DNA of 34,805 nt from Candidatus Adlerbacteria bacterium. GTDB taxonomy: Bacteria > Patescibacteriota > Minisyncoccia > Phycocordibacterales > SBAW01. Shown here piece after piece: positions 2,261 to 33,498 of the stretch. The stretch spans positions 1 to 34,805 of the forward strand of contig JAYTFN010000089.1 in assembly GCA_043734325.1 (NCBI GenBank), read 5' to 3'. The translations under genes and the position numbers were made by a program. The stretch's first letter is position 1. Every line of letters begins with the position of its first letter. A model generated the notes under the pieces. It was not told the origin of the DNA and made no database searches. It saw nothing but the letters and a program-made list of their open reading frames with translations.

Positions 2261-3469
2261 CTATTCAATTTTATATCTTTTCTCTACCTCTAGAAGTCGT
2301 GTAGCTATATATGTCGCATCACTTTTGGTCACCGTAGGCAGGAGGGTGAGCCGAATAGCGCTTTTGATACTGTCCGGAGGCAAGTGGAGTGCTTGTAAAA
2401 CGTGGGAAGGCGCTTCATCGCTTGAGTCACACGCCGAGCGAGTCGAGGCGGCGACGCCCAGCGCATCAAGTGCAATGACCGCCATTTCACCATCGAGCCC
2501 GGGAATAGAGATATTAAGATTATTTGCTACCCGTTGGTCCCCGACGGCCCCATTAACCGTTGCAGTTGGTATGCGTTTTAAAATTTCTTGCAGTAGAACA
2601 TTTCGAACTCCTGCAATTCTTTTTGCGTTTTCATTTTCTTTAGCTTGTGCGTCAGCCAATGCGACTGCAAACGAACCTGCCAGTGGAACATTTTCAGTTC
2701 CACTGCGTATACCTTTTTCTTGACCACCTCCACGATGCTGAGCCATAATCGTAACGCCTCTGCGGATGTATATAGCCCCAACTCCTTTCGGACCCATAAT
2801 TTTTTGACCATCCAGAGTAAGAAGGTCAACGCCTAATTTCTCGACTTCAACAGTTTTCCAAAGTGGTGCCTGAGAAGCGTCAACGTGCAAATACAGCGGT
2901 ACCACTGACTCTGAAGATGGGTGATCTCTTCTGGCGCGTATGGTACGAATAGCCCGTATTTCTTTTGCAATTTCGCGAATCGGCTCTATTGTTCCAATTT
3001 CACTATTAATAAATTGAATGGAAACTAATACGGTGTGCTCAGTAATTGCCTCAGTAAGTTCTTTAAGGGATATAAGTCCGGCGGAGTTAACACGGAGCTT
3101 GGTTAACTCGAGACCCTCTTTTTTAAGTGCTAAAAAAGGCTCAAGGACTGAAGGGTGCTCAATGACTGAAGTTACCGCATGTACTTTCTGCGTGCGCGAA
3201 AGTCGATGGCGAAGCGCGCCTTCAATAGCTAGGTTATTCCCTTCGGTACCACCTGAAGTAAAAACGATTTCGTCCGCATGAGCTCCTATCGAGGATGCCA
3301 CTAGCGCGCGAGCTTTTTCAAGTTCGTTTTTTGCTGCAACCGCTTCCTTGTGAAGCGCACCCGGGTTACCAAACAAGTCGAGTAGGCGAACGAGTTCAAG
3401 CCTAGCCTCGTTTGAAAGCGGCGTCGCTGCCGCAGCGTCTGCATATATTCGCTTCTTCTTCCAAATCAT
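2261..3469 (-). CDS. iscS: Cysteine desulfurase (IscS/NifS family, PLP-dependent)
   Basis: YADAAAATP, EIVFTSGGTEGNN, IEHPSV, HVDASQ, QKIMGPKGVG (PLP Lys), RSGTENV, TRSAC (catalytic Cys). Confidence 0.9.
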   Translation of the reverse strand: MIWKKKRIYADAAAATPLSNEARLELVRLLDLFGNPGALHKEAVAAKNELEKARALVASSIGAHADEIVFTSGGTEGNNLAIEGALRHRLSRTQKVHAVTSVIEHPSVLEPFLALKKEGLELTKLRVNSAGLISLKELTEAITEHTVLVSIQFINSEIGTIEPIREIAKEIRAIRTIRARRDHPSSESVVPLYLHVDASQAPLWKTVEVEKLGVDLLTLDGQKIMGPKGVGAIYIRRGVTIMAQHRGGGQEKGIRSGTENVPLAGSFAVALADAQAKENENAKRIAGVRNVLLQEILKRIPTATVNGAVGDQRVANNLNISIPGLDGEMAVIALDALGVAASTRSACDSSDEAPSHVLQALHLPPDSIKSAIRLTLLPTVTKSDATYIATRLLEVEKRYKIE

Positions 3470-3526
3470 TGTCTAATTAGTATATACTGCTTGGTACAGG
3501 TTCAACATCTTTGTTTTCCCCTGACT

Positions 3527-4036
3527 ATGAATATTCCATTTTTTATTCTACATTCCACACCGTATTTTGCTTTTGCAGCGATTGTACTCACTCTTGCAGC
3601 GTTGTTTTTTATCATCTCTATGAGTCACCGTCTCGACAAGCTGACCTTGGGCACAAGCGGCACTGTAGAAGAGACCGTGGGCATACTTACCGAACATATG
3701 AAAGAAATGAAGACTTTTCGCAGTGAGCTAGAGCTTTACCTGAAGCAAGCTGAGGCACGAATGCGGACCTCGGTGCGCGGTGTGGGCATTATTCGATACA
3801 ATCCCTTCGCTAACGACGGATCCTCGGGCGGAAATCAGAGTTTCGCCATCGCACTCCTTGACGAAATGCTATCTGGTGTGGTATTTTCTGCTCTCTACTC
3901 GCGTGATCATGTTGGGGTGTATGCTAAGCCCATCACAAGCAGCACCTCAACCTTTACCTTATCGGACGAAGAGCAACAAGCAGTAGACCAGGCAAAAGCA
4001 TCTCTTGCCGAGAAAAAACGTGGAGAACGAAAATAG
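3527..4036 (+). CDS. DUF4446-like membrane-anchored protein
   Basis: N-terminal TM, coiled coil, then GIIRYNPF..GGNQSFAIALLD..GVVFSALYSR..YAKPI, which I recognise as DUF4446-like. ATG 3527 preferred over upstream TTG. Confidence 0.7.
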   Translation: MNIPFFILHSTPYFAFAAIVLTLAALFFIISMSHRLDKLTLGTSGTVEETVGILTEHMKEMKTFRSELELYLKQAEARMRTSVRGVGIIRYNPFANDGSSGGNQSFAIALLDEMLSGVVFSALYSRDHVGVYAKPITSSTSTFTLSDEEQQAVDQAKASLAEKKRGERK

Positions 4037-4129
4037 AAAAATAGAAAAATATTTTTATATACTCGTCGTTCGTTCGGAATAGAAAATAAATTTTCTTTCA
4101 CTCACTTCACTAGATTATAACTACTCACT

Positions 4130-5659
4130 ATGCCAGAAAAAGAAATCATCCCGCGGGATCGCCCGCCTATTGTTACCGTTGTAGGGCACATCGACCATGG
4201 TAAGTCGACGCTTTTAGACTATATTCGAAAAAGTAATACTGCGGCAGGAGAAGCAGGCGGCATCACTCAACACCTGTCAGCATACGAAGCGGTGCATACT
4301 ACTCCGGCTGGTGTTCTGCGTCACATTACTTTTCTTGACACCCCCGGTCACGCAGCATTTCGTGCTATGCGATCGCGAGGACTAAACGCGGCAGACGTAG
4401 CCATTTTAGTTGTCTCAGCTGAAGACGGTGCAAAAACGCAAACAGTAGAAGCTATTACGTTAATACACGAAGCAAAAATTCCTTTTATTGTAGCTTTTAC
4501 AAAAATAGATAAGCCGAATGCAAACCTCGAGCGCGCGAAGCTGTCACTATTAGAACATAACGTCTTTGTTGAAGGGATGGGTGGTGACACACCGTTTGTC
4601 GCAGTCTCAAGTAAAACGGGCGAAGGTATTCCCGAGCTTCTTGACCTTATACTCCTAGCCGCAGAGCTCGAGGGACTTTCTGCTGACCCGTCTCTACCTG
4701 GCGTCGGTTTGATAATCGAAGCACACATTGACCAAAAACGCGGTAACACCGCAACGTTGATAGTGAAGGACGGTAGTGTCAGAAGTGGCCAATACATTGT
4801 CTGTGGAGAGAGTTTCGCACCAGTGCGAATTATGGAAAATTATATAGGCAAAAATATTAAAGAGGCGCTGCCGGGAAGTCCTATGCGTATCGTAGGCTTT
4901 ACCACCGCACCGGAAGTAGGAGCACAGTGGCGCGCAGTGGAGACAAAAAAAGACGCAGAGGCGCACGCAACAGAAGCACGAAAAAAACGTCTAAGCGAAA
5001 CGGTAGCGCCGACACGCAACACAGAGCCTGAAGAAGACGGCAAACTGCATGTGGTTATGCCATTAGTAATTAAAACTGATTTTTCAGGCACGGGCGACGC
5101 CGTGTTGCATGAGCTTTTAAAAATGCCGCAGGACCCACGCCTTGAAGTGCGCGTTGTGGGTCGCTCCGTGGGCCACATTAGCGAAAACGATGTAAAACTC
5201 GTCGGAGCATCCACGCCAGCAGGTATCATCGTCGGATTTAACGTCAAAGTCGAAAATGAAGCGCGTCAGCTTGCAGAGCGTTTGGGTGTCGAGGTCGCTA
5301 CTTTTGATATTATTTACAAACTCACCGAGTGGCTTCAAGAACAACTCACCAAACGTCATCCCCGCGAAAATATGGACGAAAAAACAGGTACCGCTAAAAT
5401 ACTAAAAGTATTTAGTAACCAGCAAGGTCGCGTTGTGTTGGGAGGACGATTAGAACAAGGAGTTTTTGAAGAAGGAAATCCGGTTAAGTTGATGCGCGGC
5501 GAACTAGAGCTTGGTCGCGGCGAAATACTTAGCCTTCAAATTCAAAAATCAGCCGTCAAAAAAGCGGAAGCTCCTTGTGAGTTTGGCACAATGATACGGA
5601 CATCGGCACAACCCGCACCCGGAGATTATATAGAAGCCTTTGAAGTAGTACTGAAATAA
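4130..5659 (+). CDS. infB: Translation initiation factor IF-2 (short form lacking the N-terminal domain)
   Basis: RPPIVTVVGHIDHGKSTLLD, EAGGITQH, FLDTPGHAAF, TKIDK, IIVGFNV, IIYKL; followed by rbfA. Confidence 0.97.
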   Translation: MPEKEIIPRDRPPIVTVVGHIDHGKSTLLDYIRKSNTAAGEAGGITQHLSAYEAVHTTPAGVLRHITFLDTPGHAAFRAMRSRGLNAADVAILVVSAEDGAKTQTVEAITLIHEAKIPFIVAFTKIDKPNANLERAKLSLLEHNVFVEGMGGDTPFVAVSSKTGEGIPELLDLILLAAELEGLSADPSLPGVGLIIEAHIDQKRGNTATLIVKDGSVRSGQYIVCGESFAPVRIMENYIGKNIKEALPGSPMRIVGFTTAPEVGAQWRAVETKKDAEAHATEARKKRLSETVAPTRNTEPEEDGKLHVVMPLVIKTDFSGTGDAVLHELLKMPQDPRLEVRVVGRSVGHISENDVKLVGASTPAGIIVGFNVKVENEARQLAERLGVEVATFDIIYKLTEWLQEQLTKRHPRENMDEKTGTAKILKVFSNQQGRVVLGGRLEQGVFEEGNPVKLMRGELELGRGEILSLQIQKSAVKKAEAPCEFGTMIRTSAQPAPGDYIEAFEVVLK

Positions 5660-8580: not shown

Positions 8581-8853
8581 TTATGGCAAAAGTCCGTTTA
8601 CCGTTTCTGAGATAATACTCAATATCTTCACTGTTGAGACAATTATAAAAAGTCCAACCAAGCCCCACAACATATGCTGCTTTCCGTCACTAGTGGATTC
8701 GCCTCCACGGAGCTTCCACAAATACTGCACTATTCCCCATACGAACACTAATACCGCCAGTGAGGCAAGGAGTATAAGAATTGGATTGACTATGTAGGCT
8801 ATGAGCCGACTAAGGATAGAGCAGGTGTCTGCATCAGCAACACAACGTGGCAT
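8581..8853 (-). CDS. TrbC/VirB2-like pilin-family small membrane protein
   Basis: Two hydrophobic helices, LVFVWGIVQYL..GKQHMLWGLVGLFIIVS; part of a tandem array. Confidence 0.65.
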   Translation of the reverse strand: MPRCVADADTCSILSRLIAYIVNPILILLASLAVLVFVWGIVQYLWKLRGGESTSDGKQHMLWGLVGLFIIVSTVKILSIISETVNGLLP

Positions 8854-8879
8854 AGTATGAAAATGCTAGAGAGTAAGGA

Positions 8880-9230
8880 CTAGTTCGTTGGGAAGTGTGG
8901 AGCATTAACCGTGTTTGGCTGGTTCGTTCCGTTAAGAAGAGCACTTTGTATAAGACGAATGATGCCCCATATGGAAACCATCACAAAGAGCGCAATGATA
9001 CCATTTGCCATTATTTTTTGACCTATTCCTTTTTCAGCGTTATGGATGTATTTTATGAGACCGTAAAAGAACACAAGCATCGCTACACCTATCGAAATAG
9101 GAATAAGAAGTGCAATGATATTAGCGATAGAAACTATAAACTGCTGTATTGGCGCCAGCGTACCATATTGAGCTCCGGCGAAAAGCGGAAGTGCGAGTAG
9201 AACTGAGGAGAAGAGTGCTAATTTTTTCAT
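8880..9230 (-). CDS. TrbC/VirB2-like pilin-family protein with signal peptide
   Basis: Signal peptide MKKLALFSSVLLALPLFAGA; LVFFYGLIKYI..GQKIMANGIIALFVMVSIWG. Confidence 0.65.
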   Translation of the reverse strand: MKKLALFSSVLLALPLFAGAQYGTLAPIQQFIVSIANIIALLIPISIGVAMLVFFYGLIKYIHNAEKGIGQKIMANGIIALFVMVSIWGIIRLIQSALLNGTNQPNTVNAPHFPTN

Positions 9231-9353
9231 ACGAAGTTTATTGTTGCTCGATATCGTTTAAATGTATACCTGTTCAGTCTAACAGGATACCGTAGCGTCA
9301 CAATAGCCTTATGTGGATAGCACGTAGTACGCACCACGGGGTATATGCAAAAA

Positions 9354-9710
9354 TTATGCCGATTGAATAAACAAGGGAATATTTTTATCACCTGTATCAT
9401 TTATAGCAGGGTTAGGTTTAGGGTTAGTACAGTTTGCGTTTCCTAAAAAACTTATACACATTAACTTTAAAATACCTCCAAGCGAAAAAATTATAAAAAG
9501 TGATATAAGCCCCCACACAATAAGCTGCCTCCCTTCCTGCTGACCCTTAGGACCTGAGCTATTGCTTATATACCTGACTAATCCCCAAAAGAAAATAAGT
9601 ATGGCTATGCCCGATAATAGCCACACGAGGGAGTTCATAACTTCGACGATACCGAAGATTATAGAGCTAAACGTAGAATGGGTAGTGCCAAACATATTAA
9701 TTGCACGCAC
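9354..9710 (-). CDS. TrbC/VirB2-like pilin-family protein
   Basis: LIFFWGLVRYI..EGRQLIVWGLISLFIIFSLGG, same pattern as neighbours. Confidence 0.65.
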   Translation of the reverse strand: MRAINMFGTTHSTFSSIIFGIVEVMNSLVWLLSGIAILIFFWGLVRYISNSSGPKGQQEGRQLIVWGLISLFIIFSLGGILKLMCISFLGNANCTNPKPNPAINDTGDKNIPLFIQSA

Positions 9711-10119
9711 TCACACTTGCCGCATTTGTAGGCGAAATACTTTTAAGCGTATTTGCAATAACTTGTCCCAAGATCCACGCACCCATAAATATAAATATCC
9801 CAAGAAAGACATTAATAAGGTTGAGCCGAGCCTCTTTAAGTTTTTCCGGTTTGCCTCTTGCGTAAATGAACATGAAGCCGGCATATGCCAAAAATAATGC
9901 CGCGACCGGCATGCCAATTGCAAGTATAAAAGCCAGAATCTTCTTAATAAGACCACAAATTGAGTCTACATTAAGCGGATTCTGGATTTGAAAGCCAGAG
10001 GAAGGGTTTACTATTCCTTGTTGGCTCGCAGGGGTCTGTTGAGCAAATACCGGCAAAACTTGCGAAGCACCTAATACTAGTGCAAGTAAAAAAATATTCA
10101 CATACGCAAAGTGTCTCAT
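9697..10119 (-). CDS. TrbC/VirB2-like pilin-family protein with signal peptide
   Basis: Signal peptide ending PVFA; IQNPL..PVAALFLAYAGFMFIYARGKPEKLKEAR..; paralog of 27748-28134. Confidence 0.7.
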   Translation of the reverse strand: MRHFAYVNIFLLALVLGASQVLPVFAQQTPASQQGIVNPSSGFQIQNPLNVDSICGLIKKILAFILAIGMPVAALFLAYAGFMFIYARGKPEKLKEARLNLINVFLGIFIFMGAWILGQVIANTLKSISPTNAASVSACN

Positions 10120-27747: not shown

Positions 27748-28134
27748 TTAACACGACGCAATACCTGGTATGAGGCCGGGTATAATTGAGTTTGCAGTAT
27801 TTACAAGAGTTATACCCAAAAGCCATGAGCCAAAAAATAAGAATACTCCAAGCAAAACGTGTACGAGCTTAGTGCGAGCATCAGCAAGCGCTCCGGCATT
27901 TCCCCTTGCATACACAAACAAAAATCCTACATACGCTATTGCGAGTGCAGCTACCGGCGTTCCAATTAAATAGATGCCGCCGATAAACCCTTTTAAAGCG
28001 CACACAAGCGGCTGGTTGTTTAAAGGATCTTCAAATGTAAACGTTTCCGTTTGTGCAAAAGCAATGACAGGCAGCAGAAAAGACACGAGAAGCGCAATTG
28101 AAACTTTTTTATTAAAATAAGCTCTCACCACCAA
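27748..28134 (-). CDS. Orphan TrbC/VirB2-like pilin, paralog of 9697-10119
   Basis: Signal peptide ending IAFA; FEDPL..PVAALAIAYVGFLFVYARGN..ADAR..LGVFLFFGSW. Confidence 0.7.
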   Translation of the reverse strand: MVVRAYFNKKVSIALLVSFLLPVIAFAQTETFTFEDPLNNQPLVCALKGFIGGIYLIGTPVAALAIAYVGFLFVYARGNAGALADARTKLVHVLLGVFLFFGSWLLGITLVNTANSIIPGLIPGIASC

Positions 28135-28157: not shown

Positions 28158-28504
28158 CGACTCAAATTTGCTGTCGCAAAATTTGGTCGCCGAACTCGCC
28201 TTCCGCATCGGAACGTCCGAAGGGACGTAGGCGGTTTTTGCCTTTGCTTATAGCAAAACAAAAACAACACTGCGGCCGTCACACGTAAACAAAAAAAGCG
28301 GAATTATCCGCTTTTTTGAATCGTGTGACCCTACCGGGAGTCTTTCCTTACAGGAACAGTAGGGGTTTCGTATCTCACTTCGTTTTGGAACAAAACTCGT
28401 TACGATATACTCAACCCTTTCGACTCCCGGCCGTAGGCAAAGTAGTTTGCCTACTTAGGGTCATGAATAGAAAAGGCGCCTTTCGGCGCTCATTTCTGTA
28501 CTCA
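28158..28504 (-). repeat. tRNA-Glu-associated structured trailer, two units
   Basis: 17-bp direct repeat TGACCCTACCGGGAGTC at 28326-28342 and 28505-28521; inverted copies TTCGACTCCCGG 28419-28430 and TAGGGTCATGA 28456-28466 separated by hairpin 28433-28454. Confidence 0.8.
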
Positions 28505-28576
28505 TGACCCTACCGGGAGTCGAACCCGGCTTTAAAGCTTGAAAAGCTTTCGTCCTAACCGATAGACGATAGGGCC
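28505..28576 (-). tRNA. tRNA-Glu (TTC)
   Basis: Reverse complement: acceptor GGCCCTA/TAGGGTC-A; anticodon arm AAAGC-TTTTCAA-GCTTT; T arm CCGGG-TTCGACT-CCCGG. Confidence 0.93.
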
Positions 28577-28675
28577 ATTACGGCAAATATAGCCTAAAGT
28601 GCAAAAAAATGCTATTTTGCAAACTGTTCGACCTATGAAAGGAAGAAGAATGTTAGTTCTTTCCTACTAACATCT

Positions 28676-28762
28676 GGAGAGGTGGCTGAGTGGTCGAAGG
28701 CACCGGTTTCGAAAACCGGCATCCGGGAAACTGGATCGAGGGTTCAAATCCCTCCCTCTCCG
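28676..28762 (+). tRNA. tRNA-Ser (CGA)
   Basis: Acceptor GGAGAGG/CCTCTCC-G; anticodon arm CCGGT-TTCGAAA-ACCGG; long variable arm; T arm GAGGG-TTCAAAT-CCCTC. Confidence 0.95.
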
Positions 28763-28777
28763 CAGAAATAAACTTCC

Positions 28778-28975
28778 GAATCCGAAAGGTGGGGGCGAAA
28801 ACATGAAAAAATACGACTCAAAAAAGGTATGTCGCAAGGCGACATCTGCCGTGAGTTAAGGTTAGATAGAGTGTATATTAGTAATGTTGAGAACGGCAAA
28901 CAAAACCTTACAATTAGCACAATGGAAAAGGTAGCTAAAGTACTTGGGGTTAGCGTATATCAACTTTTGAAATAA
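28778..28975 (+). pseudogene. XRE-family HTH regulator, 5'-damaged copy
   Basis: Intact frame from ATG 28829: MSQGDICRELRLDRVYISNVENGKQNLTISTMEKVAKVLGVSVYQLLK*. Upstream GENMKK segment (ATG 28803) is out of frame relative to IRLKKG, and an in-frame stop lies at 28769-28771. Confidence 0.7.
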
Positions 28976-28977
28976 TT

Positions 28978-29883
28978 ATGACTACACAAAACCAAACCAT
29001 TACCAAAATCGCAATATTCCAAAAAAAGGAAGTCCGCAAGATTCTTCACAAAAACGAATGGTGGTTCTCTGTAATTGATGTGATTGAGGTTTTAACAGAT
29101 ACTGCACGTTCTCGAAAATATTGGAGCGACCTCAAGAGAAAACTTATAAAAGAGGGTTATTCCGAAGTGTCCGAAAAAATCGGACAGTTGAAAATGACCT
29201 CTCCAGACGGAAAAAAGCGAGAAACTGACTGCGCTAATACCGAGACAATTTTCCGTATTATCCAAGCCATTCCTTCGCCAAAAGCAGAACCATTCAAACG
29301 CTGGTTGGCACGAGTTGGTTTTGAACGAATTGAGGAGATAGAAAATCCAGAACTTGCCACAAAACGCACGCGTGCATTATACAAAGCCAAAGGATATTCT
29401 GATACGTGGATTGAGAAAAGAATGCAAGAAATAGAAATAGAAACAGATACAATACCAACAGAACTCAAAAAAATTCTCGTAGATAAAATTAATCAATCGT
29501 TATGGTGGCATGTAACACCTAGCGATCCAGATGCATATAAAAAACGGGGAAAATTTTTAGCCTCTACATACAGTCAGGCAGCTTTTTATGGGAAGCCCAA
29601 TATAAAACCGGAAAGAATCAAAATATCGCACCCACTATGTAGTGACTCAGAGAAAGAAATTCTTAAAGTTCTATTTCCAGAGACACACCAGAGAATGCTT
29701 CTTTTTATTACAAGTGCAAATGAGTCGGATTACTATGAGCGAAGAATTAATTTAGATGAAAAGATGCACGAGCAAGCAAAGAAGTTAGGATATGATTCAA
29801 TTGTTCTTCTCGGCTCAACGGCAATAAATGAACTTGTGAAGAACCGTAAACCTCGTTCAATCGAATTAAATCTATGTGTATGA
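28978..29883 (+). CDS. BRO-N domain protein fused to a putative ADP-ribosyltransferase-like C-terminal domain
   Basis: N-half WWFSVIDVI..YWSDLKRKL..DGKKRETD..RIIQAIPSPKAEPFKRWLA (BRO family); C-half WWHVT..GKFLAST..AAFYG..ISHPL..GYDSIVL..IELN. Confidence 0.75.
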   Translation: MTTQNQTITKIAIFQKKEVRKILHKNEWWFSVIDVIEVLTDTARSRKYWSDLKRKLIKEGYSEVSEKIGQLKMTSPDGKKRETDCANTETIFRIIQAIPSPKAEPFKRWLARVGFERIEEIENPELATKRTRALYKAKGYSDTWIEKRMQEIEIETDTIPTELKKILVDKINQSLWWHVTPSDPDAYKKRGKFLASTYSQAAFYGKPNIKPERIKISHPLCSDSEKEILKVLFPETHQRMLLFITSANESDYYERRINLDEKMHEQAKKLGYDSIVLLGSTAINELVKNRKPRSIELNLCV

Positions 29884-30836
29884 TACAAAATAAAGTAATA
29901 ACAGAAATTGCGAACACGTTCGACATAAACAAGATTTATGCACACAGAGTTTTTTCGCTTGCAGACAAGTCAAATCTGATAGAAGATTCCTCTCGCATCA
30001 TTTCAGAAAAACCAAAACCTTTTGTTAAATGGGTCGGTGGTAAACGTCAGTTATTAGCTCAATTTCGAAGACTAAATCTTTATCCTCCAGAAAAATTTGA
30101 TCCAAAAAACGGAAAATATTTTGAACCCTTTGTTGGTGGCGGTGCAGTGTTCTTTGATCTACTTCCTGAAACAGCTTATCTTTCTGATTTAAACAATGAA
30201 CTTGTTATTACTTATAATGTGATTAAAAATGATGTTGAAAATCTAATAAAATCACTAAAAAAACACAAACTAGACAAAGAATACTTCCTAAAAATACGAA
30301 CACAGAGCCCAGAAAAACTTTCTGGTTTAAATACCGCCTCTCGTTTTATATATTTAAACAGAACTTGTTTCAATGGTATGTATCGGGTAAACAGTAAAGG
30401 TGGATTTAATGTTCCATTTGGTAAATACACAAACCCTCTTATTTGCGATGAAAATAATCTTAGAAAAGCATCAAAAGCATTGAAAAATGTTGAGATTAAA
30501 AAACAGGATTATAAAGAAGTGTTAAAAAAAGCAAATAAAGGAGATTTTATATATTTTGATCCTCCTTACTATCCTATAAACAAAACATCTTCGTTTACTT
30601 CCTACACCAAAGAGTCATTTTTAGACAAAGAACAAATTGAACTAAGAGATACATTTGTAGAACTACACAAAAGAGGTTGCTTTGTTATGCTTTCAAATTC
30701 CGATACTCCGTTTATAAACAAAATCTATTCTGAACCTAAAGGTCTCCGTATTACAAAAGTACAAGCGGGTCGCGCCATTAACTCTGATGCTTCTAAAAGG
30801 GGCAAAATTACAGAAGTACTGGTAACTAACTACTGA
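29880..30836 (+). CDS. Dam-family (D12 class) N6-adenine DNA methyltransferase
   Basis: PFVKWVGGKRQL, YFEPFVGGGAV, YLNRTCFNGMYRVN, YFDPPY, MLSNS; ATGA overlap with upstream gene. Confidence 0.93.
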   Translation: MIQNKVITEIANTFDINKIYAHRVFSLADKSNLIEDSSRIISEKPKPFVKWVGGKRQLLAQFRRLNLYPPEKFDPKNGKYFEPFVGGGAVFFDLLPETAYLSDLNNELVITYNVIKNDVENLIKSLKKHKLDKEYFLKIRTQSPEKLSGLNTASRFIYLNRTCFNGMYRVNSKGGFNVPFGKYTNPLICDENNLRKASKALKNVEIKKQDYKEVLKKANKGDFIYFDPPYYPINKTSSFTSYTKESFLDKEQIELRDTFVELHKRGCFVMLSNSDTPFINKIYSEPKGLRITKVQAGRAINSDASKRGKITEVLVTNY

Positions 30837-30843
30837 TTTCTTT

Positions 30844-31602
30844 ATGGCAAACAACAATTCTTGGAAAAAAATATTTGATGATAATAAAATTTTGGAAAAT
30901 GACTTTTCTAAACAGCCTTTCTATTTATCTGCAAAAGATATAAAGAAGTCTGTCCAAGATTTTCAAAATACTTCAGAAAAAGAGGTGCGAATCTTATGCA
31001 AAATGGACACACGCGAAAGCGTTCCTGAGATAATGAAGAAAAATGGCTTAATTTTATTACCTGTAAAAAATAAATTTTACGTTATTGTAAAAGGAGAAGG
31101 CTATGTAGATATCCCAGATATTGAAGGTGACGCAGAGATATACAGTACGAAGCTTGATTTTGATTTAGATACTACAAAAATAGGAAATTCTGAGATGCAA
31201 CATCTTGATTTTGCCTATGCCTCAAGTCTCATTAGAACTTTCATAGAAGATCCAAGTCTTGTTCTCACTATTCGCGGTAGAAAATATACTCCCGAATTTA
31301 CTTATAAGGTGGGTAATAATACGGTTGAAACAAAAGGGGTGCAAACAGAAGTAGATGCTGGTTACGAGGGCAAGGATAAGGTTGTTTTAATTGAAGCAAA
31401 AAATTCTTCCACAAAAAATACAATAATTAGACAGTTGTATTACCCCTATAGACAATGGTCAGAACATACGAAGAAAAAAGTTTTCTTGTTATTTTTTGAA
31501 AAAAGAGTTGATGAGTATTTAATTTGGCAATACGAGTTTACAGATAAAAATAGTTACGATTCAATAAAACTTGTAAAGTCAAAAAAATATAAGATTATTT
31601 AA
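30844..31602 (+). CDS. Putative type II restriction endonuclease (PD-(D/E)xK)
   Basis: QTEVDAGYEG..VLIEAK catalytic-like motif and IRQLYYPYR; lies between two MTases. Confidence 0.7.
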   Translation: MANNNSWKKIFDDNKILENDFSKQPFYLSAKDIKKSVQDFQNTSEKEVRILCKMDTRESVPEIMKKNGLILLPVKNKFYVIVKGEGYVDIPDIEGDAEIYSTKLDFDLDTTKIGNSEMQHLDFAYASSLIRTFIEDPSLVLTIRGRKYTPEFTYKVGNNTVETKGVQTEVDAGYEGKDKVVLIEAKNSSTKNTIIRQLYYPYRQWSEHTKKKVFLLFFEKRVDEYLIWQYEFTDKNSYDSIKLVKSKKYKII

Positions 31603-32351
31603 TGTCTCAAAAAGATTTAAAACTTCACCCCGAAGAATTTGAATTAGAGTGTACAACTGTATGGGCTTTTCCACGTAGAGGAAATTGGGCTACACATACA
31701 TCTGATTGGCGTGGAAATTGGTCGCCAGAAGTAGCTAGAAATCTTATTTTGCGTTACTCAATAGAGAAAGACCACTTACTCGATTGTATGATTGGTGGAG
31801 GCACTACTGCGATAGAAGCAAAAATTTTAAATCGACACATTACTTGCATTGATGTTAATGAGGAAGCGTTAGAGAGAACGAAAAAATCTCTTGAATTTGA
31901 GGTTGATAATAAAGCAAAACAACGGGTCGTGAAATGTGATGCAAGGGATATGAGCTTTATTAAAGATAATGAGATTGATTTTGTTTTAACTCATCCTCCG
32001 TATGCAGACATTATAAAATACAGTGAGGGTAAAATTAAAGAAGATTTATCGGGTATACACGACATAGATGCTTTTGTTGATGAAATAGGAAAAGTTGCAA
32101 AAGAATTGTTTAGGGTTTTGAAGAAAGGTAAATATTGCGCGATTCTCATGGGAGATACACGCAGAAACAAAATGTACCAACCTCTTGCGTTTAAGGTAAT
32201 GCAGAAGTTTCTAGATACAGGTTTTGTATTGAAAGAAGACATTATAAAAAGACAGTTTAATTGCAAGGCAACAGGTTTTTGGGTTACAAAGTCAAAAGAA
32301 TCAAACTTCTTGCTGATAATGCATGAGCATCTTTTTGTATTTCAAAAATAA
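31602..32351 (+). CDS. Amino-methyltransferase (N6A/N4C DNA MTase or Trm11-like)
   Basis: Motif I LDCMIGGGTT followed by motif IV THPPY; TAATG overlap with the nuclease gene. Confidence 0.8.
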   Translation: MSQKDLKLHPEEFELECTTVWAFPRRGNWATHTSDWRGNWSPEVARNLILRYSIEKDHLLDCMIGGGTTAIEAKILNRHITCIDVNEEALERTKKSLEFEVDNKAKQRVVKCDARDMSFIKDNEIDFVLTHPPYADIIKYSEGKIKEDLSGIHDIDAFVDEIGKVAKELFRVLKKGKYCAILMGDTRRNKMYQPLAFKVMQKFLDTGFVLKEDIIKRQFNCKATGFWVTKSKESNFLLIMHEHLFVFQK

Positions 32352-32354
32352 TCT

Positions 32355-32474
32355 ATGAAATTAACTTTTAGAAATCAAACTGCCGCAATCGTTATTGGTG
32401 CTTTAATTTTAGCTGTTGCACTTTGGTTTATATTCAAGTACACAGGAGTTAATCTTTCGAGCCTACAGCCCTAG
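32355..32474 (+). CDS. 39-aa single-TM peptide
   Basis: MKLTFRNQTAAIVIGALILAVALWFIFKYTGVNLSSLQP*, starting 3 nt after the MTase stop. Confidence 0.55.
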   Translation: MKLTFRNQTAAIVIGALILAVALWFIFKYTGVNLSSLQP

Positions 32475-32480
32475 TTGGGC

Positions 32481-32509
32481 TTGACAGAAAGATATCCGTA
32501 TGTTAGGAT
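32481..32509 (+). promoter_or_regulatory. Sigma70 promoter with extended -10
   Basis: TTGACA 32481-32486, 17-nt spacer, TGt-TAGGAT with -10 at 32504-32509. Confidence 0.65.
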
Positions 32510-32580
32510 AGTAGCGACTTCGGATTTGAGCTATTGTGGCTCAAAACAAGCAGGTTTCCAAACCAAACTGGAGGTTTACC

Positions 32581-32955
32581 ATGCAGTTCCCAATGCGAGA
32601 TACGATGACGGCAGGACAAGCTGTCATAAACAACGCGAAACAACAGAATTTGGCTCGCGGAAAATACTACCGCTTCGAGCCACCGGTTACGGCGACGGCT
32701 GTCCCGACTGGTGGACCGAACACCTGCGCGCTGGAGGAATGCACGTTCAATCGTGGCTGGTACATCGGCTTCGCGGAAGGCAATCATGTCTTCCAGGGCA
32801 AGCCGGTGAATGACCAGCGAGTGATCCCGATGCCGAAAGGCTTCGAGGACGCGTCGAACCTGAACGAAATCCTGAAACAACTTCGAGACTGCTACTTCCT
32901 TGTCCTGTTTATCGGTGGAAGCGCGGCGGTTCTCGATGTCAACCAGGATCACTGA
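32581..32955 (+). CDS. Hypothetical protein (124 aa), GC-rich
   Basis: GGAGG RBS 32570-32574, ATG 32581; own promoter and terminator. Confidence 0.65.
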   Translation: MQFPMRDTMTAGQAVINNAKQQNLARGKYYRFEPPVTATAVPTGGPNTCALEECTFNRGWYIGFAEGNHVFQGKPVNDQRVIPMPKGFEDASNLNEILKQLRDCYFLVLFIGGSAAVLDVNQDH

Positions 32956-32969
32956 ACAACGAACTGCTT

Positions 32970-33012
32970 GCCCGCCATGTCGAAAGACCTCTGGCGGGCT
33001 TTTCATTTTTTC
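32970..33012 (+). terminator. Intrinsic terminator
   Basis: GCCCGCCA..GTC-GAAA-GAC..TGGCGGGC followed by TTTTCATTTTTT. Confidence 0.7.
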
Positions 33013-33183
33013 AAGGGAGCAATCCCCGCCGTTTTATAATATCTCCTAAAAACGGCGAGGACTTGCGCAAGCACAGGGCGGGCGGGGCAAGCACAATAGG
33101 ATTTGCTTGTGCCTTAGCGCAATCCATATTTTGAGTTACCACGACCAGTTTCCGAAGTCGCAGAGTTTAGAACTACTAGTAAA

Positions 33184-33211
33184 CGCCGAGAAGAAGCGCT
33201 TCTTCTCGGCG
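33184..33211. repeat. Perfect 28-bp palindrome
   Basis: CGCCGAGAAGAAGC|GCTTCTTCTCGGCG. Confidence 0.85.
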
Positions 33212-33291
33212 CTATCAATTTATACACCTATTGTGATATATCACATTATTGATATACGACACAACAAGTTGCTACAATACCAACTGTGGAT

Positions 33292-33498
33292 ATGAAAAAT
33301 TCGTCAATAAAACTTGGGAAAAACATAAAACGCATACGAGAGCGGAAGAAAATGTCGCAAGGCGACATTTGCCGAGCGCTTGGCTTTGATCGTGCTCAAA
33401 TGAGTAATATTGAAGGGGGTAAAGGAAATCCGACACTTGCAACCATTGAGAAAATCGCTCAAGCGTTGGGAGTTACGAGCGATAAACTTTTGAAATAA
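33292..33498 (+). CDS. XRE-family HTH transcriptional regulator
   Basis: LGKNIKRIRERKKMSQGDICRALGFDRAQMSNIEGGKGNPTLATIEKIAQALGV. Confidence 0.9.
   Translation: MKNSSIKLGKNIKRIRERKKMSQGDICRALGFDRAQMSNIEGGKGNPTLATIEKIAQALGVTSDKLLK

Follow-up and report, generated by a model that had tools for sequence, protein, structure and literature searches.

The open reading frame (ORF) at positions 28978..29883 of Candidatus Adlerbacteria contig JAYTFN010000089.1 (assembly GCA_043734325.1) joins two modules in one protein of 301 amino acids (aa). We analysed positions 1 to 34,805 of the forward strand of this contig, denoted here the window. We read the protein as a Bro-N/DinD-like module followed by a compact domain with an ADP-ribosyltransferase (ART) fold, and its gene as a coupled third gene of DpnII/GATC-type type II restriction-modification (R-M) operons; we give this reading a probability of about 0.6. 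Textbooks describe type II R-M as a defence of two enzymes. The GATC-type cassettes seen here carry a third, highly conserved and enzyme-like gene with them through about a dozen phyla, which would mean that such systems do more than cut and methylate. Two things are new: a type II R-M cassette that includes an ART-fold protein as its third component, and the ART family itself, which counts about 200 clusters, is absent from Pfam, NCBIfam, PHROGs and PADLOC, and offers clear candidate catalytic residues and simple three-gene operons.

The fusion ORF (P0001, plus strand) starts with ATG, and its N-terminal half contains a Bro-N domain at residues 18-111 (29029..29310; PF02498, 52.3 bits against a cut-off of 25.6). 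Bro-N is considered a DNA-binding domain. This half has at least 8000 relatives at E<=1e-3 (8000 of the 8000 candidates scored). Among the 120 relatives listed, nearly all are Patescibacteria proteins of ~275-285 aa, named Bro-N, phage antirepressor or DinD at their source, and they span just 49-62% of the ORF with identity of up to 90%. The segment that the fusion has in common with these ~280-aa Bro-N/'DinD'-like proteins covers residues 1 to ~164 (28978..29472), and both PADLOC candidate PDC-S13 (residues 9-157, 2.2e-66) and phrog_15286 (residues 10-169) match it. Alignments place the junction, where the Bro-N/DinD likeness stops and the ART-like domain starts, at 29425..29472. An earlier annotation made from the letters alone (the sequence-only reading) had described an ORF with BRO-family similarity up to ~29425; the ORF, the Bro-N assignment and the end of the family likeness are all borne out. 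Ordinary members of this family continue with a C-terminal ~120 aa of their own, which in the fusion is swapped for the ART-like domain.

The C-terminal ~137 aa (residues 165-301, 29470..29880, plus strand) form a family of their own, as delimited by homologues, model and structural matches. Used alone as query, this part retrieved 197 homologous clusters of 75-240 aa, mostly 'hypothetical proteins' of 139-150 aa, with 52-69% identity across the whole domain. The domain is normally a free-standing protein of ~142 aa. In 55 close homologues the invariant positions are N8, W12, W13, H14, P17, G27, F29, Y40, G41, P43, P55, R92, D96, A103, D109, L122, P128 and E132 in domain numbering, to which 164 is added to obtain ORF numbering, so that H14 is H178, Y40 is Y204, D109 is D273 and E132 is E296. 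An alignment of 72 rows that includes distant members shows 100% conservation of R190 (R26), P219 (P55) and D273 (D109), followed by E296 (99%), G27 (99%), F193 (F29, 99%), Y204 (93%), H178 (83%, the remaining 12 rows carrying Arg) and S196 (82%). The motifs picked out by the sequence-only reading, WWHVT at 29503-29517, GKFLAST..FYG, HPL, GYDSIV and SIELN, are all present at their places, and since they make up the conserved core of a family they exceed chance; T180 of the 'H-x-T' motif is not conserved. On the DNA, the His178 codon (CAT, in WWH of strand 1) lies at 29509..29511, the stretch R190-G-K-F193-L-A-S-T ... F-Y204-G (strand 2 and the next helix, from the alignments and the model) at 29545..29589, the Asp273 codon (GYD, just ahead of strand 4) at 29794..29796 and the Glu296 codon (SIELN, last strand) at 29863..29865, the last two encoding candidate catalytic acids.

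Distant members of the family occur in much larger proteins. An exhaustive phmmer search over 1.84 billion representatives gave 122 matches, of which 13 are proteins of 875-4287 aa; the polyvalent arrangement is restricted to these distant relatives, the close family being free-standing. By Pfam, P0257 carries LPD38 and SNF2, P0297 carries GNAT, and in P0293 (3638 aa) a D12 methylase begins 15 residues after the ART-like domain. Among relatives of 421-526 aa, P0305 carries GNAT and P0274 a ParB-like nuclease. The LPD38, SNF2, D12, GNAT and ParB-like partners of the long proteins indicate that the distant relatives belong to polyvalent proteins, in the sense that the available text of PMC5512222 gives to the term. 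In P0306 a separate, weak ART-PolyVal match lies directly behind the ART-like domain, indicating that the two are distinct families. We also observed a 238-aa relative (P0283) in which a DpnI/Dam-replacing fragment (PF06044, 2.9e-7, residues 2-48) precedes the ART-like domain, a further tie to GATC methylation. The C-terminal part of the window's ORF matched nothing in Pfam (E<=10), NCBIfam or PADLOC, and in PHROGs just phrog_4700 at 0.026. In sequence searches of the PDB, phmmer with the ORF returned just Osa (E 1.4) and the family profile just chance-level rows. The close family was absent from 50,697 phage records (tblastn of the domain and of P0327), and a scan of IMG/VR with family patterns gave 22 pattern matches, none of which was confirmed.

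To learn about the genomic company of the domain, we examined the loci found by a pattern scan with one genome per species. The scan gave 35 loci, distributed over Saccharibacteria, Gribaldobacteria, Paceibacterota, Elusimicrobia, Planctomycetota, Omnitrophota, Desantisbacteria, Zixibacteria, delta-proteobacteria, Parachlamydiales, Actinobacteria, Acidobacteria and others. Three partial matches (L033-L035) were dropped, and the remaining 32 span about a dozen phyla. A DNA methylase is encoded at position -1, +1 or +2 in 26 of the 32 (N6_N4 at -1 in 16; D12 at +1 in 4; D12, MT-A70 or N6_N4 at +2 in 6). A recognised nuclease is encoded at +1 or +2 in 19 of the 32, namely DpnII in 7, MutH-like in 5, DUF6996/6997 in 4, BglII-like in 2 and PDDEXK_11 in 1; in four more loci, ORFs of 173-180 aa at +1 or +2 have weak PDDEXK_11 matches. 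Going by the known properties of their families, DpnII-, MutH- and BglII-type nucleases act at GATC-containing sites. The usual gene order is methylase-ART-nuclease or ART-Dam-nuclease(-methylase), with a median gap of 1 nucleotide (nt) to the same-strand upstream gene (n=23) and of 13 nt to the downstream gene (n=28), and the ART-like gene is co-transcribed, and probably co-translated, with the R-M genes. The cassettes are mobile, with 50-60% identity across phyla. As a control we took, from the metagenome scan described below, 31 of the 75 non-fusion Bro-N/DinD loci, selected for their long flanks; two had no ORF, leaving 29 loci with 84 ORFs. Unlike the fusion, these ordinary genes do not lie beside methylases (0 of 29 loci with a methylase at -1, +1 or +2). 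The difference between 26/32 and 0/29 (Fisher p 1.4e-11, for loci that are not independent) indicates that the R-M link belongs to the ART-like module and not to Bro-N. The linkage to Dam, endonuclease and methyltransferase genes, whose recurrence the sequence-only reading had left to be checked, thus recurs, and the data support the ART-like domain as a recurrent component of R-M operons rather than a local oddity.

The window itself carries a cassette of this kind on its plus strand. Directly behind the fusion lies a D12-class (Dam/DpnM-like) N6-adenine methyltransferase gene (29874..30836, alternative ATG at 29880; PF02086, 9.4e-64), which among solved proteins comes closest to DpnM (2dpm, 3.2e-69; E. 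coli Dam gives 4.5e-36). It is followed by a probable type II restriction endonuclease with DUF6996 and DUF6997 (30844..31602; Pfam, and PADLOC REase_II PDLC03513, 4.1e-31), for which sequence searches found no solved relative, and by a second DNA methyltransferase, of the N6_N4 family (31602..32351; PF01555, 1.9e-21; PADLOC MTase_II, 4.9e-90). The fusion's stop codon TGA (29881-29883) overlaps the ATG at 29880, and the first ATG of the D12 frame, at 29874, lies earlier still, so that fusion and methylase are coupled with either start, in agreement with the coupling read from the letters. A Saccharibacteria locus (L001) has the same four genes, its ART carrying a short unrelated N-terminal extension. 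DpnII-type cassettes with two methylases consist of the genes DpnM, DpnA and DpnB. The window resembles them in its DpnM-like D12 methylase, its nuclease and its second, N6_N4 methylase, and related loci have true DpnII-family or MutH-like nucleases. It differs in the extra ART-like gene, here fused to Bro-N, and in its DUF6996/DUF6997 nuclease: a DpnII-family nuclease (PF04556) is absent from the window and present in 7 of the 32 related loci. No macrodomain or ADP-ribosylhydrolase (ARH) antitoxin had been noticed in the window. In agreement, none of its 40 non-overlapping ORFs of at least 70 aa matches either family (six searched at E<=0.1, and 34, plus two extra frames, at E<=1e-4), and none was found among the 94 ORFs that neighbour the stand-alone homologues at -1, +1 and +2.

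Structure prediction and comparison support the ART-superfamily fold well. A first model, from 55 sequences, had a predicted local distance difference test (pLDDT) score of 85.1. The second AlphaFold2 (AF2) model, from 58 sequences including divergent stand-alone members, reached pLDDT 96.2 and a predicted template modelling (pTM) score of 0.88. In domain numbering, the model has a strand at 11-13 (WWH), a strand at 28-31 (KFLA), a helix, a strand at 55-58, a helical insert at 61-105, a strand at 110-114 preceded by GYD and a last strand at 131-135 (IELNL). The His-or-Arg of the first strand that marks the superfamily is H178; strand 2 reads K-F-L-A and then S-T, with Y198 and Y204 in the following helix; and the late acid is represented by D273, just before strand 4, and by E296 in the last strand. 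VIA-align against 48,161 PDB representatives returned just 73 chains with Z>=2, and 19 of the 22 best rows belong to the ART superfamily by title or by the AcrIF11 paper, all spanning the whole model (residues 1-137). The best row is MbcT (Z 5.1, 103 residues aligned, root-mean-square deviation 3.7); AcrIF11 (6kyf, Z 4.8; 8dwq, Z 4.1), ParT (Z 4.1), NatT, Xre-RES, diphtheria toxin with three homologues, tankyrases 1 and 2 and PARP1-3 are also among the top rows, and 9k3a_B, 9qe9_B and 8gug_A are the three undecided ones. With both models Foldseek ranked 6kyf first in the PDB (E 9e-3 and 1.3e-2, probability 0.98 and 0.96), then MbcT, PARPs and diphtheria toxin. In BFVD, which holds predicted viral structures, five matches had E<=1e-3, and 10 of the 50 rows listed are named ART-PolyVal or PolyVal ADP-ribosyltransferase. 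Of the 30 nearest ESM Atlas clusters, 23 are among those that carry PF18760; once this family is set aside, the nearest are AcrIF11 clusters (0.87), which we take as a lead only, and an RES-family cluster is found at 0.79. The structure search for which the sequence-only reading had called thus agrees with its proposal of an ART-like fold, the top matches being nearly all of this superfamily, though with Z of at most 5.1. One of the undecided rows, chain B of 9k3a (residues 1418-1592, a cyanophage A4 pre-ejectosome protein), aligned with the model over 114 residues at Z 4.9; the paper on this structure has no word starting with 'ADP-ribosyl' or 'ribosyltransferase'.

Within the superfamily, the structural, profile and Atlas matches support minimal ARTs of the ART-PolyVal / AcrIF11 kind as the nearest kin. 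ART-PolyVal (PF18760) is a small ART-fold domain of phage and conjugative-element polyvalent proteins; the available text of Iyer et al. 2017 (PMC5512222) gives its active site as H in strand 1, Y in strand 2 and D in strand 5, and places it among protein-modifying domains. The window's domain is like it in motif order, with [HR] in strand 1, G-x-aromatic-x-[AS]-[ST] in strand 2, A-x-x-Y-G and G-Y-D-x-[IV], a GYD-type motif being found in true PF18760 proteins too, and also in having distant relatives within giant polyvalent proteins that carry D12 methylase, SNF2, GNAT and ParB-like domains. Five of 38 divergent stand-alone relatives gave PF18760 matches, all below the gathering cut-off of 31.2 bits (13.5-25.4 bits), the best being P0327 (2.7e-5, profile positions 19-134 of 140). 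The window's domain differs in lying below the Pfam threshold, in having Phe instead of Tyr in strand 2, and in that its close family is cellular, free-standing and situated in R-M operons, a setting that the available part of PMC5512222 does not mention. AcrIF11 (PF26151), an anti-CRISPR ART represented by 6KYF and 8DWQ, has a beta core, a variable helical insert (residues ~51-107), a catalytic H/Y early and D/E late, including D115/E116, according to the portion of the mBio 2025 paper (PMC12421852) available to us. It shares the size (~135-145 aa), the layout and the top Foldseek PDB rank; the likeness is structural and from the Atlas only, with no sequence-level match, and AcrIF11 is a phage or plasmid counter-defence that modifies Csy1, whereas the window's family sits in R-M defence operons. 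Of the resemblance to ART-PolyVal that had been claimed, the structural proximity therefore stands and membership by Pfam threshold does not; as judged by sequence, we have not filed the domain under PF18760 or PF26151. The H-Y-E-type order likewise held in part: the strand-1 His is there and the terminal-strand Glu is conserved, while the strand-2 Tyr is a Phe, and D273, in GYD, is no weaker a candidate for the catalytic acid than E296.

The fusion of this domain to Bro-N appears recent in the window and recurs elsewhere. Compared with the related contig L048, the window is collinear from the tRNA through the upstream helix-turn-helix (HTH) gene and the Bro-N gene to ~29425, with 86.5% DNA identity over 28806-29425 (620 nt). 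The alignment collapses at ~29425-29440, beyond which L048 goes on as an ordinary DinD-like gene. The Bro-N half has 89.7% aa identity to the unfused P0007 over 165 alignment columns, tblastn of P0007 ending at residue 164 (window 29472), whereas no homologue of the ART half exceeds 69% identity. In tblastn of P0007 nothing was left in the window of the displaced DinD-like 3' part, and the junction precedes, by a few codons, the point where stand-alone ARTs usually begin. Probably, then, the 3' third of a Bro-N/DinD-like gene gave way to the cassette not long ago, as far as these alignments tell. The same four observations favour a rival explanation, which we regard as a serious minority possibility, namely that the window's fusion is functionless as such, a by-product of cassette insertion, and that its ART half works as a stand-alone protein or is not properly made. 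Set against this are the frame, intact over 301 codons, and six other 90%-identity clusters (53-62% identity) that keep both halves, with varied linkers, before the same operon. Because six clusters with intact halves are hard to explain otherwise, the fusion class is probably under selection.

Bro-N-ART proteins make up seven 90%-identity clusters in all: P0001, P0003-6 and two N-truncated ones, P0010 and P0018. Between them they show no fewer than four distinct junctions, and both halves are conserved, with 53-62% overall identity. A metagenome scan, in which 80 of 153 relatives were kept, contained five full-length fusions (L045-47, L050, L051). The order is T5orf172 / Bro-N-ART / D12 / MutH-like / N6_N4 / AAA_21 in L045 and Bro-N-ART / D12 / DUF6996-6997 / N6_N4 in L051; the fusion-led configuration therefore recurs, with the nuclease exchanged. 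A one-off chimera, which had been named as an outcome that would undo the proposal, fits the window's junction, which looks like a young replacement, and does not fit the seven clusters or the shared operon of L045 and L051. The ART-like domain is also joined to methylase: in L023 (2235-3596) a 453-aa ORF reads through from it into a D12 methylase, with genes for a DpnII-family nuclease and an N6_N4 methylase next in line, and P0293 has the same ART-D12 order inside its 3638 aa.

Several results weigh against the reading of the ORF as a Bro-N-ART component of GATC-type R-M operons. No single structural match is significant: the best Z is 5.1, while best Z values of 7-8 are common for unmatched models, and Foldseek gave no PDB match at E<=1e-3. 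The strand-2 residue, F193, is aromatic though non-canonical, in place of the Tyr of the H-Y-E/D pattern. Residues 145-301 have no PF18760 or PF26151 match even at E<=10, and the window's own genome (654 kb, ~81% complete) has no PF18760 match at E<=10. Aligned by hhalign with four true PF18760 sequences, the 72-row profile fell into a sensible motif register that was not significant (P 0.018, probability 2.6%); the 55-row profile gave P 0.03, and hmmsearch of the family profile against the loci of true PF18760 sequences gave nothing significant. A search meant to enlarge the PF18760 alignment retrieved just the cluster of the query itself. In six of the 32 loci a methylase is missing from positions -1, +1 and +2 (L011 and L024, at contig ends, and L020, L025, L028 and L029), and the neighbour in L028 is DndB-like. 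GATC specificity is deduced from family names and from the similarity to DpnM; GATC itself shows a mild depletion across the window (observed/expected 0.73, with just two of the 16 palindromic tetramers lower), and we rejected this depletion as an argument for specificity because it is too mild. The youth of the junction weighs against reading selection into the window's own fusion. In an ART-domain tree built by a quick method, the window's ART groups with stand-alone proteins, apart from the other fusions, and the fused rows fall in three groups; constraining all fusions to one clade costs just 5 log-likelihood units (approximately unbiased (AU) test, p 0.40), so a single origin is not rejected and the fusions may all go back to one old event, followed by changes in the linker. 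Finally, the ART-methylase join in L023 could be a simple stop-codon loss.

What the third gene does can be argued from its partners. The data show the fold, the conserved H/R ... F/Y ... D ... E set of residues, the operon linkage and the recurring fusion; beyond these, we infer that the ART-like domain is an active NAD+-using transferase, that it serves restriction and not housekeeping, and that it targets something common to all the linked R-M systems. In our reading the ART-like domain is the meaningful part of the fusion, and its free-standing form a dedicated, translationally coupled gene of R-M operons, which move between many phyla. What stays constant among the partners is the type of system, the methylases being Dam/DpnM-like or other adenine methylases. 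The proteins themselves vary: the nucleases linked to the domain come from five or more unrelated families (DpnII, MutH-like, DUF6996/6997, BglII-like and small PD-(D/E)XK) and the methylases from three (N6_N4, D12 and MT-A70). The common target is for this reason more likely to be DNA than the restriction or the modification protein, and the joining of the domain to Bro-N and to Dam methylase agrees with this. Candidate targets are GATC-type sites lacking methylation, or the nicks and 5'-GATC ends left by the partner nucleases, and the Bro-N half would tether the enzyme to DNA. Such reasoning works by elimination only and favours DNA weakly.

Protein modification is a rival activity that we consider doubtful. 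On this account the ART would target a phage anti-restriction protein or phage Dam, or else a host repair protein such as a ligase or recombination enzyme, so that breaks stay. Its nearest characterised relatives act on proteins or on NAD (AcrIF11 on Cas8f/Csy1, ParT, ART-PolyVal), as far as their available descriptions go, and the domain forms part of polyvalent proteins, which are presumed to enter cells by injection. T4 Alt, too, is an ART known or proposed to act on host proteins. However, the operons have no conserved protein partner, their nuclease and methylase families being variable; searches of IMG/VR contigs and of isolated phage genomes did not find the close family, which fits a cellular defence and gives no hint of a protein target; and the Bro-N and Dam-type methylase fusions point to DNA. 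If true, protein modification would make the family a defence-side counterpart of phage ARTs such as AcrIF11 and those of polyvalent proteins.

That the family ADP-ribosylates DNA and thereby extends restriction or renders it irreversible is a tentative proposal, and an unlikely one; it has two forms. In the first form the enzyme would mark unmethylated GATC-type DNA, as a methylation-sensitive 'generalised R' activity. In the second it would cap the 5'-phosphate at nicks and 5'-GATC cohesive ends so that ligase is blocked, a cut-and-cap restriction. Such an activity would explain how one enzyme can serve unrelated nuclease and methylase families that share just the type of site, why it is fused to the DNA-binding Bro-N or to Dam methylase, and how MutH-like single-domain nickases can serve as restriction enzymes. 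DNA ADP-ribosylation as 'generalised R' is a speculation in the accessible text of PMC10273834. DarT of DarTG, an ART-superfamily enzyme in anti-phage defence, is a precedent for a DNA target in what is available of PMC9503650 and PMC10273834; it differs from the window's domain in that no search gave a DarT match, no macrodomain antitoxin is linked, and the partners here are a methylase and a nuclease. If true, ADP-ribosylation of DNA or of DNA ends would be a new way to restrict DNA, by a new class of DNA-modifying enzyme.

It is improbable that the ART-like protein regulates the R-M cassette, as a post-translational analogue of controller (C) proteins that delays or tunes the nuclease or methylase in a new cell. 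The gene's place between methylase and nuclease, translationally coupled to both, would suit such a role, as would the high mobility of the cassettes (seen here also in the low-GC island described below) and the ART-D12 methylase read-through or fusion in L023 and P0293. One conserved enzyme would, however, have to recognise at least five unrelated nuclease families, or three methylase families, and no removal enzyme (macro or ARH) is linked among the window ORFs and the 94 neighbours. Most improbable is that the protein is no transferase and degrades NAD+ as MbcT and RES enzymes do, a back-up by which infection would be aborted through loss of NAD+ once restriction fails: MbcT/RES-domain NAD+ phosphorylases and NADases do give best or near-best rows (6fkg, 8qnl and 9r35; Z 5.1, 4.4 and 3.7), with the NAD+ phosphorylase MbcT on top and NatT, Xre-RES and the RES Atlas cluster (0.79) behind it, but RES and MbcT scores are no better than transferase scores, MbcT, NatT and RES toxins act in pairs with antitoxins while the typical methylase-ART-nuclease operon has no candidate antitoxin and no antitoxin-like partner was seen at the ART-like loci, and the window holds no macrodomain, ARH or Xre-RES-type partner, its upstream HTH gene being 5'-truncated.

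The literature holds, as far as we could find, no account of this arrangement. A full-text search that covered neither Aravind et al. 2015, which may bear on novelty, nor the supplementary architecture lists of Iyer et al. 2017 found no description of an ART in R-M operons or fused to Bro-N, and in the review PMC8120803 neither 'restriction' nor 'methyltransferase' occurs. The suggestion of an undescribed defence configuration, made from the letters alone, is consistent with this outcome.

The cassette lies in a low-GC island at 28764..32351 (GC 31-40%, backbone 46%). Its left border is the 3' end of a tRNA-Ser(CGA) gene (28676..28763, plus strand; ARAGORN and Rfam), and the synteny with the same genus (thioredoxin reductase, tRNA-Glu, tRNA-Ser) ends at 28763. 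By part, the GC content is 0.37 in the HTH frame, 0.40 in Bro-N, 0.36 in ART, 0.32 in the D12 methylase, 0.31 in the nuclease and 0.35 in the second methylase, with 0.46 in the backbone. No direct repeats were found at the island ends, and the right border is approximate, being drawn from GC content. Beyond it, 32352-33285 has 48% GC and two overlapping opposite-strand ORFs (139 and 167 aa) without a Pfam match, so that the right border is undefined. A scan for promoters and terminators over 28400-33400 gave 17 hits against 12.5 +/- 3.7 in shuffles, which is not above them, and the site at 28887-28914 is just a consensus match.

Between the tRNA and the fusion lies an XRE/HTH_3 frame (28772..28975, plus strand; HTH_3 E 4.9e-14), whose stop is 2 nt before the fusion ATG. 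The frame is open from a stop beside the tRNA-Ser, with no ATG, GTG or TTG before 28829, and with a start there helix 1 would be lost; as ATG 28829 is the first canonical start, just 48 aa of the frame are certain. The HTH homologue in L048 has 113 aa, and ~90 nt that lie there between tRNA and HTH are absent from the window. The truncated HTH (28829-28975) has an intact paralogue with ~68% DNA identity, a 70-aa XRE HTH gene at 33286-33498 that precedes an MFS (major facilitator superfamily) transporter. Elsewhere in the window, at 8584-10119 and 27751-28134, three small ORFs among housekeeping genes match T4SS_pilin (PF18895), and one ORF of these regions has a sub-threshold TrbC/VirB2-pilin match (24.5 bits, cut-off 27.9).

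A few of the loci with stand-alone ART-like genes have partners of other kinds. In L007 a 501-aa ORF (2466-3968) joins an SOS-type cleavable module, made up of LexA DNA-binding and Peptidase_S24 autocleavage domains, to an N6_N4 methylase of the R-M kind, and it lies directly upstream of the stand-alone ART-like gene and a MutH-like nuclease. In L027 a 375-aa ORF (2688-3812) with two matches to the RNA polymerase alpha C-terminal domain directly precedes the ART-like gene, which is followed by a D12 methylase and a small PD-(D/E)XK-like ORF. The most divergent stand-alone ART-like genes (41-44% identity) are those of L028, L030 and L031, from Acidobacteria (ART at ~4000-4380). There a DndB-like ORF of 538-779 aa comes after the ART, with a D12 methylase next in L030 and L031, and these partners are unlike those of DpnII-type operons.

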